Positions 45,675 to 46,835 of a stretch of 64,000 nt of DNA are shown one piece after another; the stretch's first letter is position 1, and each line of letters begins with the position of its first letter. This DNA comes from an uncultured beta proteobacterium. GTDB lineage: Bacteria > Pseudomonadota > Gammaproteobacteria > Burkholderiales > Burkholderiaceae_C. The stretch lies in assembly GCA_903869595.1 (NCBI GenBank), contig CAIPZV010000037.1:4600-68599 (forward strand), given 5' to 3'. The notes under the pieces were generated by a model that did no database searches, had not been told where the DNA came from, and saw nothing but the letters and a program-made list of their open reading frames with translations. Position numbers and translations under genes: made by a program.

Positions 45675-46835
45675 ATGCTCGAACGCAACACCCTCACCCC
45701 CCAGCCTGGCGTCGCCAGCGCGGCGGCGGCCTTGCGCCGCGACAGCTACGGGGTCCCTACAGGGCGCACTGTCCCTGGGGCGGGGTTTTCGCAAACCCTG
45801 CAAACGGTGCAAGGTGCGCACAGCACCACGGTCGATGCGGGAGACACGCTGATTGGCATGATCCGCGATGTCGCCAAGGCCAAAGGCCAAACCTTAAACC
45901 CCGCACAAGAGTTCCAATTAGCCCAGCAAGTGGCGCAAGTCAACGGCATTGGCAACGCCAACCGGATTTACACGGGCCAAAAAATTGACCTGGCGGTACT
46001 TGAGCCCGCTCTCGCAGCCCTAGCTACCGCCGGACCGGGCCGTGGCCTGCCGGCGACGGCGGTCTATACGCCCACCAACCCCAACGCGACAGCAGCGGCT
46101 ATTTTGCAAAACACCGTACGTATGCAGACGCCTGTGCAAATGGCGATGAGCCGTAATGCCGAATTGAACATACCGCGCCCGGTGCGCAATACCGTCCCGG
46201 CTTCCTATAGCCCCACGGCAGACCTGGACCATCCGGTACTACTCAAAACCCTGGACCGCGCGGTGGCCAAAGGCTTTATTCCGCCGGCAGAAAAGGCGGC
46301 GGTCTATGACAAGATTGTGGACATGTCCAAAAACCACGGTTTTTCGCCGGACGACTTCGCCCGCATGACGCTGATGGAGAGCGACGGCATGAACCCGCGC
46401 GCCAGCAACCAGCGCTGCCACGGCATCATCCAGTTTTGTGATGGTCCGGCCCGTGGTGCCGCCTCTGCCGGTTACGCCGCCAATCCCAAAGCCATTCTGA
46501 ACCTGAGCGTGCACAAGCAGCTCAGCTTGGTGGACAAGTATTTTGAGGATGTGGGCCTTAAGACCCAAGGACCTGCCGGGCTGGAAGATTTGTACCTGTC
46601 GGTGCTCAATCCGGCATCGCGGGCGCAAAGCCAGCTCAATGCCCCGCTCAATATCCCCGGCGCGCAGGCGCGCAGCCTGCATGTGGGGAGTGACACTTCG
46701 GCGCCGATTACGCGCCAGTCCATCCGCCAGGGCTTGTTGCAGAACGCCGCAGCCCGGCTTGGGCAGATGTTGCCGCCGTCTTTGCGGCAGCAGGCGCAGC
46801 GGGCGCAGCAATACGTGGAAGACAGTTTGCCGTAG
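45675..46835 (+). CDS. LysM-like plus lysozyme/lytic-transglycosylase-like protein
   Basis: TVDAGDTL...VNGIGNANRIYTGQKIDL (LysM-like); MTLMESDGMNPRASN...GIIQF (SLT-like catalytic Glu region). Confidence 0.7.
   Translation: MLERNTLTPQPGVASAAAALRRDSYGVPTGRTVPGAGFSQTLQTVQGAHSTTVDAGDTLIGMIRDVAKAKGQTLNPAQEFQLAQQVAQVNGIGNANRIYTGQKIDLAVLEPALAALATAGPGRGLPATAVYTPTNPNATAAAILQNTVRMQTPVQMAMSRNAELNIPRPVRNTVPASYSPTADLDHPVLLKTLDRAVAKGFIPPAEKAAVYDKIVDMSKNHGFSPDDFARMTLMESDGMNPRASNQRCHGIIQFCDGPARGAASAGYAANPKAILNLSVHKQLSLVDKYFEDVGLKTQGPAGLEDLYLSVLNPASRAQSQLNAPLNIPGAQARSLHVGSDTSAPITRQSIRQGLLQNAAARLGQMLPPSLRQQAQRAQQYVEDSLP

Follow-up and report, generated by a model that had tools for sequence, protein, structure and literature searches.

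How does a growing flagellar rod cross the peptidoglycan layer when the rod-cap protein FlgJ comes without a hydrolase domain? This question is raised by a 64,000-nucleotide stretch of DNA (64 kb, hereafter the window) from an uncultured beta proteobacterium (GenBank assembly GCA_903869595.1, contig CAIPZV010000037.1, positions 4,600 to 68,599 of the forward strand), whose flagellar cluster encodes a short FlgJ and, between flgA and flgB, an open reading frame (ORF) that we call X. Our analysis suggests that X is likely to be a dedicated flagellar peptidoglycan-lytic enzyme that supplies the wall-opening function missing from FlgJ, and we propose that it travels by the flagellar type III route; its activity and its export are what we infer from homology, structure models, and gene order. 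As claimed in an earlier note on this DNA, FlgJ (57111..57659, + strand) is indeed devoid of a hydrolase domain: it consists of the rod-binding (scaffold) domain followed by a Pro/Ala/Gln-rich tail, its only matches are to Pfam Rod-binding and, out of the 294 positions of the FlgJ model TIGR02541, to positions 3-103, and flgK begins at its stop codon. The GH73 glucosaminidase family PF01832 was found neither in X nor anywhere else in the whole genome (3.43 Mb in 85 contigs, estimated 100% complete).

X is confirmed as a genuine conserved gene, and no chance ORF. The ORF (45663/45675-46835, + strand) encodes 386 amino acids from the ATG at 45675, which was taken as the start because an "MLERN" start is common to the orthologues, and the gene accordingly extends over 45675..46835. 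The ORFs, Pfam, and the comparison of loci agree with the earlier note in that X is a separate gene, standing between its divergent neighbor flgA on the - strand (P-ring chaperone; longest ORF 44684-45616, listed gene 44684..45511; Pfam ChapFlgA 2.2e-23) and flgB, the first gene of the rod/hook operon, downstream on the + strand (47717..48100). A search of 5.8 billion proteins returned >2300 homologues, none of which has a recorded Pfam domain and of which the named ones are all called "hypothetical protein". When X is aligned with 17 homologues of 63-89% identity, its last 200 residues appear near-invariant and residues 50-110 form a further conserved block, the stretches 1-35 and 119-185 being variable in both length and sequence.

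The near-invariant part corresponds to an all-alpha, lysozyme-like domain of lytic transglycosylase (LT) type (residues 186-367, or up to 370 in the model; 46230..46775, + strand). In the AlphaFold2 model computed on the family alignment, this domain has predicted local distance difference test (pLDDT) values of 94-98, and when modelled alone it reaches a pLDDT of 94.4 and a predicted template modelling (pTM) score of 0.87. A family hidden Markov model (HMM) built from 49 diverse members, down to 30% identity to X over this C-domain, matched PDB entry 9udh ("lytic transglycosidase", 164 aa) with E=2e-6 over profile positions 189-295, aligning "mES.dGlnP...GIIQF...LddLYLtvLtPaa" of the X family with "FETgETFSP...GLIQF...IEDVYMVIFCPRA" of 9udh. 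The same entry, under the name "bacteriophage lytic transglycosidase", came first in a Foldseek search of the PDB with the C-domain (E 4.4e-4, probability 1.0, TMt 0.70, TMq 0.55), followed by phiKZ gp144, MltF, the pre-ejectosome LT of cyanophage A4, Slt, MltE/MltC, Rpf, and g-type lysozyme, all of one fold class. Among the viral models of BFVD, the top matches are phage proteins annotated "Transglycosylase SLT" or "lytic transglycosylase". A literature search on 9udh found no paper describing it. The earlier note had proposed to check for a GH23- or GH19-like fold: the GH23 type is supported by Foldseek, by the profile, and by an invariant glutamate, and a GH19-like fold found no support, as all structural neighbors are GH23-type LTs or g-type lysozymes.

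The SLT-like motifs read in the earlier note as MES..MNP..N...GIIQF are found at 46365-46442, in the stretch MTLMESDGMNPRASNQRCHGIIQFCD. Within it, Glu235 of "MES" (codon 46377..46379, + strand) closes helix 225-236 and is followed by Ser236; in GH23 lytic transglycosylases, the catalytic Glu likewise lies at a helix end and is followed by Ser. E235 is invariant in the 49 diverse sequences, together with G238, P241, C248, G250, Q253, C255, Y307, and a few others, and "GIIQF" holds two of these residues, G250 and Q253. In the alignment with 9udh, E235 falls on the Glu of "ET" and "GIIQF" on GLIQF. On this basis, E235 can be put forward as the putative catalytic acid.

The closest relatives of this domain outside the family come from phage tail or baseplate modules. 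Phage enzymes provide both the closest structure and, with 9udh, the only solved structure significantly related in sequence; X shares with 9udh the Glu motif, the "G(L/I)IQF" hairpin, and a "DxY(L/M)xxxxPxA" helix. However, 9udh and the phage tail/ejectosome LTs (phiKZ gp144, cyanophage A4) are phage proteins without LysM and without an N-terminal export-like region, and X has two extra invariant cysteines that are absent from 9udh. These cysteines are common to a second architecture, in which the X-type C-domain lies at the N-terminus of proteins of 406-454 aa and Peptidase_M23 lies at their C-terminus (six of the six proteins scanned); the exhaustive representative search that brought this architecture to light comprised 469 representatives at E<=1e-3. 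At two related loci (L114, 928-3743; L115, 283-3098), a 416-aa fusion of the X-like LT domain with M23 adjoins a 521-aa protein in which an amidase is combined with a phage baseplate family (phrog_30576, 1.5e-56), with an HNH endonuclease encoded just upstream. Judging by this gene content, we read the locus as a phage tail module with two wall enzymes side by side. The X-type C-domain thus also serves in the cutting of walls by phage proteins, whose delivery is through a tube and independent of Sec.

Upstream of the catalytic domain, X carries a LysM domain for peptidoglycan binding, whose helical insert is extended (residues 48-118; 45816..46028, + strand). Although Pfam LysM gives no match at E<=1 on X itself, the domain, which the earlier note had described as LysM-like, is real on three counts. 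The family profile matches solved LysM chains with E-values of 1e-4 to 5e-3 (LytN 1.2e-4, SafA 1.3e-4, and also CVNH-LysM and Kbp); Pfam LysM (PF01476) exceeds its gathering score in the remoter homologues P0143, P0135, and P0136; and AlphaFold2 predicts the beta-alpha-alpha-beta unit (strand 50-52, helices 59-69 and 76-89, strand 103-105) with a pLDDT of 91-96, for which Foldseek returns LysM structures including 7b5h and OsCEBiP with a probability of 0.98-1.0. Other searches with X were uninformative: a single-sequence phmmer search against the PDB gave only chance matches to GBP1, an NCBIfam scan only faint matches of no use, and PHROGs a single weak match over the LysM region. The LysM and catalytic domains are joined by a disordered Pro/Ala/Thr-rich linker (residues 119-185; 46029..46229, + strand; pLDDT 47-61), variable in the alignment and far longer in remote homologues of 552-652 aa. 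The protein ends in a C-terminal helix, "LRxQAQRAQQYVExxLP" (residues 368-386 plus stop; 46776..46835, + strand), whose columns R371-P386 are invariant among the 17 close homologues; conserved within the clade and not in remote members, it is possibly a partner-binding tail.

X is strictly bound to flagellar loci, and in particular to those with a rod-only FlgJ. Among 80 species-level loci from freshwater Comamonadaceae-type metagenome-assembled genomes labelled Rhodoferax, Polaromonas, Limnohabitans, and similar, the order flgN-flgM-flgA | X-flgB-flgC-flgD-flgE is kept in 80/80, as far as contigs reach, with identity dropping to 45% for X and 30% for FlgA; the same order surrounds a metagenomic homologue that is 41% identical to X in the family alignment (43% by tblastn). 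The earlier note had named homologues unlinked to flagellar loci as a finding that would speak against its proposal, and linkage is what all 80 loci display. It had also suggested to look for co-occurrence with short FlgJ: in the 28 loci with a complete flgJ, this gene is short without exception, with only 501-784 nt between the flgI end and the stop codon of flgJ, which leaves no room for both FlgJ domains. An even sample of the family (301 genomes) contains eight genomes with the X C-domain. In seven of them, the contig of X also encodes a FlgJ restricted to the rod domain (model positions 3 to ~101-137); in the eighth, this contig breaks off in flgE and the genome as a whole gave no FlgJ match. 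Conversely, none of the 209 genomes with a FlgJ match above the model cut-off, most of those listed spanning the whole model, has X (0/209). This count agrees with the statement that most beta- and gamma-proteobacteria have a dual-domain FlgJ (PMC8517470). The X C-domain was not found in 400 further genomes of the class, where only generic LysM matches appeared. X and the short FlgJ are thus a fixed trait of this lineage of flagellar clusters, which is strong evidence of a functional association.

Two genomes of the window's own genus (G128 and G281) lack X; their FlgJ is dual-domain and their flagellar cluster differs greatly, with FlgB, FlgI, and FlgG at only 27-29%, 42-43%, and 52-53% identity to those of the window and a flgM-flgB gap of only 1.3 kb. 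More distant genera share the cluster type of the window, with FlgB at 54-60% identity. The window's cluster therefore probably represents a distinct flagellar lineage that was moved or retained as a block, possibly through horizontal transfer. In two X-bearing genomes, we also encountered three near-identical stand-alone GH73 genes of ~150 aa (G130:C10:940657-941100, G130:C12:23139-23585, and G161:C48:36234-36683), with no signal peptide and no flagellar genes within ~8 kb; most likely prophage endolysins, they were set aside as a case against the link between X and short FlgJ, there being no flagellar genes nearby.

By what route could X reach the wall? LysM and LT domains find their substrates only outside the cytoplasmic membrane. 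The first 35 residues of X (45675..45779, + strand) are disordered (pLDDT 43-49, and <50 over residues 11-32) and variable in the alignment, and they contain no Sec, Tat, or lipobox signal. When N-terminal hydropathy is measured as the highest 10-residue window in the first 45 aa, X peaks at 1.42, within the range of the type III substrates FlgB/C/D/E/G/J/K of the window (0.63-1.53), versus 2.35-2.79 for FlgI/FlgH/FlgA; the X family has a median of 1.28 and a maximum of 2.0 (n=115). No hydrophobic h-region was seen in X or in the 115 homologues, in keeping with the earlier note, which had seen no obvious Sec signal.

Within this otherwise variable N-terminus stands a conserved F-x-x-x-hydrophobic motif, F38-S-Q-T-L42 (45786..45800, + strand), located in a short helix spanning residues 36-46 of the AlphaFold2 model. 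Among the 17 close homologues ("GFSQTLQ"), F38 never varies and the conservation of L42 is at least 90%, and an F-x-x-x-hydrophobic motif occurs upstream of LysM, at about residue 38, in 71 of 72 loci. It resembles the gate-recognition motif (GRM), the short hydrophobic motif through which rod and hook subunits of Salmonella dock at FlhB-C, and which in FlgD comprises residues 36-40; a further requirement of these subunits is small non-polar residues at the very start of the chain (PMC8983047). In the window, F-x-x-x-hydrophobic can be read by eye at residues 39-50 in the ORFs of FlgB, C, D, E, G, and J alike. The N-terminus of X, with its disorder and F38xxxL42, thus matches the pattern of early substrates, which is suggestive, although the pattern is short. 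There is moreover a precedent, since FlgJ of Salmonella, a wall hydrolase, leaves the cytoplasm through the flagellar type III apparatus and not by way of Sec (PMC8517470, PMC7277832). The earlier note's suggestion that X is possibly flagellum-exported hence finds circumstantial support in the disordered N-terminus and in FxxxL 38-42. Given this short motif and the lack of a visible alternative export signal, we regard flagellar type III export as the best available explanation, with a chance of being right that we would put at about even.

Elsewhere in the window, a 433-aa FliK-like protein is followed by a stand-alone 137-aa protein resembling the FlhB C-domain (41988-43699). Orthologues of this pair at locus L111 carry Pfam Flg_hook and Bac_export_2, and the pair is kept just upstream of flgN in all loci. 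The stand-alone FlhB-C-like protein (43286-43699) could offer substrates with a GRM a second place to dock.

A sigma-54-type promoter, TGGCACAGCCCTTGC, faces X ~145 nt upstream of its ATG (45516..45530, + strand; exact TGGCAC-N5-TTGC), and another, TGGCACTTTTCTTGC, faces flgA (45588..45602, - strand; exact motif). The window holds four exact copies of TGGCAC-N5-TTGC where 0.53 are expected, and related loci have sigma-54 motifs at equivalent places, ~45 on the X side and ~33 on the flgA side. As the X-side motif recurs in so many related loci, X has a conserved sigma-54 promoter of flagellar type to itself. The flgA-side motif lies inside the longest flgA ORF, so that the true start of flgA must be further downstream, probably at the "MAVAAAIWCVW" signal peptide. 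The two motifs face each other 58 nt apart, and the X and flgA transcripts would therefore overlap at their 5' ends. A sigma-28 promoter "ACCGATAA" at 45649-45656, 19 nt before the ATG, was rejected on account of its wrong -35 spacing and its absence from all related loci. The two remaining exact motifs lie at 22345-22359 and 55136-55150, the latter just upstream of the likely start of the flgH lipoprotein, which suggests an internal sigma-54 promoter before flgH.

Taken together, these features allow a working scenario to be drawn. X would be produced along with the rod and hook genes; its disordered N-terminus and F38xxxL42 would then pass it through the flagellar type III gate rather than Sec. 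In the periplasm, it would fold, possibly with a C248-C255 disulfide, and its LysM domain would fasten it to glycan strands beside the nascent rod. The tethered C-domain could then cut MurNAc-GlcNAc (N-acetylmuramic acid to N-acetylglucosamine) bonds locally, with 1,6-anhydroMurNAc as the probable product if X is a true LT, and the distal rod with its short FlgJ cap would subsequently pass. A bolder proposal is that X, by combining a transglycosylase of phage-tail-lysin type, an export signal like that of rod subunits (a hydrophobic N-terminus with FxxxL), and a LysM anchor, is the first stand-alone peptidoglycan-lytic early substrate of flagellar type III export; we advance it tentatively, with slightly less than even confidence. 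If it were true, the flagellum would launch its wall-cutting enzyme along the channel under construction and fasten it next to the elongating rod, thereby achieving the spatial control that the Sec-exported SltF gains from binding FlgJ.

Several observations weigh against X being the wall-opening enzyme of this flagellum. As regards catalysis, 9udh is the sole significant solved structure, the other LT matches of Foldseek having E>0.1; Pfam gives X no match at E<=1, SLT (PF01464) included; and SLT motif III (AYNxG) is not recognisable in X, the corresponding helix reading "LYLSVLNPA". When X is compared by hhalign with the three canonical SLTs of the same genome, the match is weak (E 0.039 over 25 columns), pairing "LMESDGMNPRA..GIIQF" with "FVES-AFNPQA..GMWQF". 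The missing PF01464 match and the helix that stands in place of motif III set X apart from PF01464 as a distinct family within the lysozyme-like LT superfamily, nearest to phage enzymes. As regards the flagellum, these three canonical Sec-type SLT genes, which lie on other contigs and whose products have N-termini with hydrophobicity at the level of a signal peptide or membrane anchor, could open the wall themselves, and housekeeping LTs have been reported to help open the wall in other bacteria. The co-occurrence of X with short FlgJ probably reflects one evolutionary event, passed on by inheritance or transfer as a block, rather than many independent correlations; in G128 and G281, which belong to the same genus, the cluster is very different. 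Finally, an F-x-x-x-hydrophobic motif within 30-55 residues is common by chance, and only its conservation counts.

These points have to be weighed along with other explanations of X. It could be a flagellum-linked wall remodeller, serving for instance FlgP/FlgT-type rings or stator anchoring and reaching the wall by an unrecognised route, with a housekeeping SLT opening the hole for the rod. The three Sec-type SLT genes would make this feasible, a LysM tether suggests prolonged residence at the wall over a transient cut, and type III export is itself only deduced; yet X is found exactly where the hydrolase half of FlgJ is missing and never beside a dual-domain FlgJ, no alternative export signal is visible in it, and its sigma-54 promoter and place upstream of flgB fit early, rod-stage expression, so that we consider such a role unlikely. 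It would be more improbable still that X is a pseudo-enzyme, binding peptidoglycan without cleaving it and serving as a scaffold to anchor or position some flagellar component, as might be argued from the failure of the Pfam SLT model, from the absence of motif III, and from the near-invariant C-domain surface, which would also be compatible with an interface for proteins or glycans. Against this, even the M23-fused phage relatives from lytic modules keep the helix-end Glu, the "GIIQF" hairpin, and Y307 without change, and it is established that GH23 LTs need just one Glu.

The origin of the domain raises another possibility, namely that X is a general wall enzyme or a domesticated phage lysin that happens to reside in a flagellar locus without a flagellar role. 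The nearest outside relatives of its C-domain are proteins of phage tail/baseplate modules, and a mobile repeat lies directly downstream of the gene. However, a bystander would hardly keep its position in 80/80 loci in which FlgA is down to 30% identity, and at a homologue of 41% identity, nor would one expect it to have a conserved sigma-54 promoter, to be absent from all 209 sampled genomes with an over-cut-off FlgJ match, and to have a C-domain for which a scan of 400 other genomes from the class gave no match. We regard this last explanation as very improbable, and a dedicated flagellar enzyme that opens the wall for a hydrolase-less FlgJ remains the reading we prefer.

How does such an enzyme compare with what is known? 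A separate wall-lytic enzyme paired with a single-domain FlgJ is a known job, and X is a new, unnamed family performing what would be this job. In Rhodobacter (Cereibacter) sphaeroides, SltF of the Fla1 system is an LT encoded in the flagellar cluster, exported by Sec, and paired with a FlgJ made of the rod scaffold only (PMC7277832). X is alike in being a separate LT-type enzyme from a flagellar cluster with a single-domain FlgJ. SltF differs in having an N-terminal Sec signal, a canonical SLT domain, no LysM, guidance through FlgJ binding, and a place in the flgG operon, whereas X has no signal peptide, no Pfam SLT match, a LysM domain with a long linker, a position between flgA and flgB, and a host among the Burkholderiales. 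The earlier note's contrast between a Sec-exported SltF and a different solution in X is therefore upheld (SltF features from PMC7277832). In Borrelia burgdorferi, BB0259 (LTase-Bb) is an SLT-type enzyme with catalytic E580 that is needed for the passage of flagella through peptidoglycan, the FlgJ of this species being single-domain (PMC8517470). It resembles X in this pairing and in its catalytic Glu (putative in X), and differs as a 717-aa, Sec-signal-dependent lipoprotein with a large N-domain of unknown nature, not encoded between flgA and flgB.

The dual-domain FlgJ of Salmonella, with its GH73 beta-N-acetylglucosaminidase, shares with X the presumed job of opening peptidoglycan locally and a Sec-free type III route (proposed for X). 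It differs in fold and chemistry, GH73 versus a GH23-like LT, and in that its enzymatic domain is fused to the rod cap and lacks LysM. MltD-type LTs, one of which (487 aa) is encoded in the same genome, also combine an LT domain with LysM. They differ in being housekeeping enzymes unlinked to flagellar genes, and in bearing a signal or lipoprotein sequence; their SLT domain is canonical (PF01464) and lies on the N-terminal side, with LysM at the C-terminus. What is new in X is then the conjunction of a phage-related family outside Pfam SLT, LysM with a linker, a rod-subunit-like N-terminus without Sec signal, a fixed place between flgA and flgB, and its own sigma-54 promoter.

To our knowledge, how flagella breach the wall and yet leave it undamaged is understood in only a few models, namely enterobacteria, where the enzyme is fused into FlgJ, and the systems with SltF or BB0259, both of which are exported by Sec. 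X would represent a third design, in which the cutter is apart from the rod cap, tethered by LysM, and probably delivered via the flagellar channel. With >2300 sequences, and abundant in freshwater bacteria of Rhodoferax, Polaromonas, and Limnohabitans type, the family would put a name on a large group of "hypothetical proteins". It also provides a clear-cut case for asking whether an enzyme that is no axial component can be exported by means of a gate-recognition motif, and it points to an evolutionary tie between phage tail lysins and the enzymes of flagellar assembly.

The surroundings of X hold a few further features. Downstream of the gene, a terminator-like hairpin with a T-run (46909..46933, + strand) is a consensus match only. 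The long spacer between X and flgB is made up of a dispersed repeat of ~540 bp (window 46900-47450), which is mobile or MITE-like (miniature inverted-repeat transposable element) and has at least 20 copies in the genome, with 74-95% identity and many at contig ends; the spacer measures ~255 bp in related loci without the repeat versus 860-940 bp with it. An Rfam scan of 45400-47750 returned nothing relevant, the weak match to the small RNA Atu_C4 inside the coding region of X (45924-45991, - strand; 26 bits versus a gathering score of 80, E 0.03) being most likely due to chance. Farther along the cluster, FlgE (1356 aa, 49325-53395) and FlgK (1191 aa, 57656-61231) are giants of their kind, and the split matches of FlgE in related loci point to a variable central insert.

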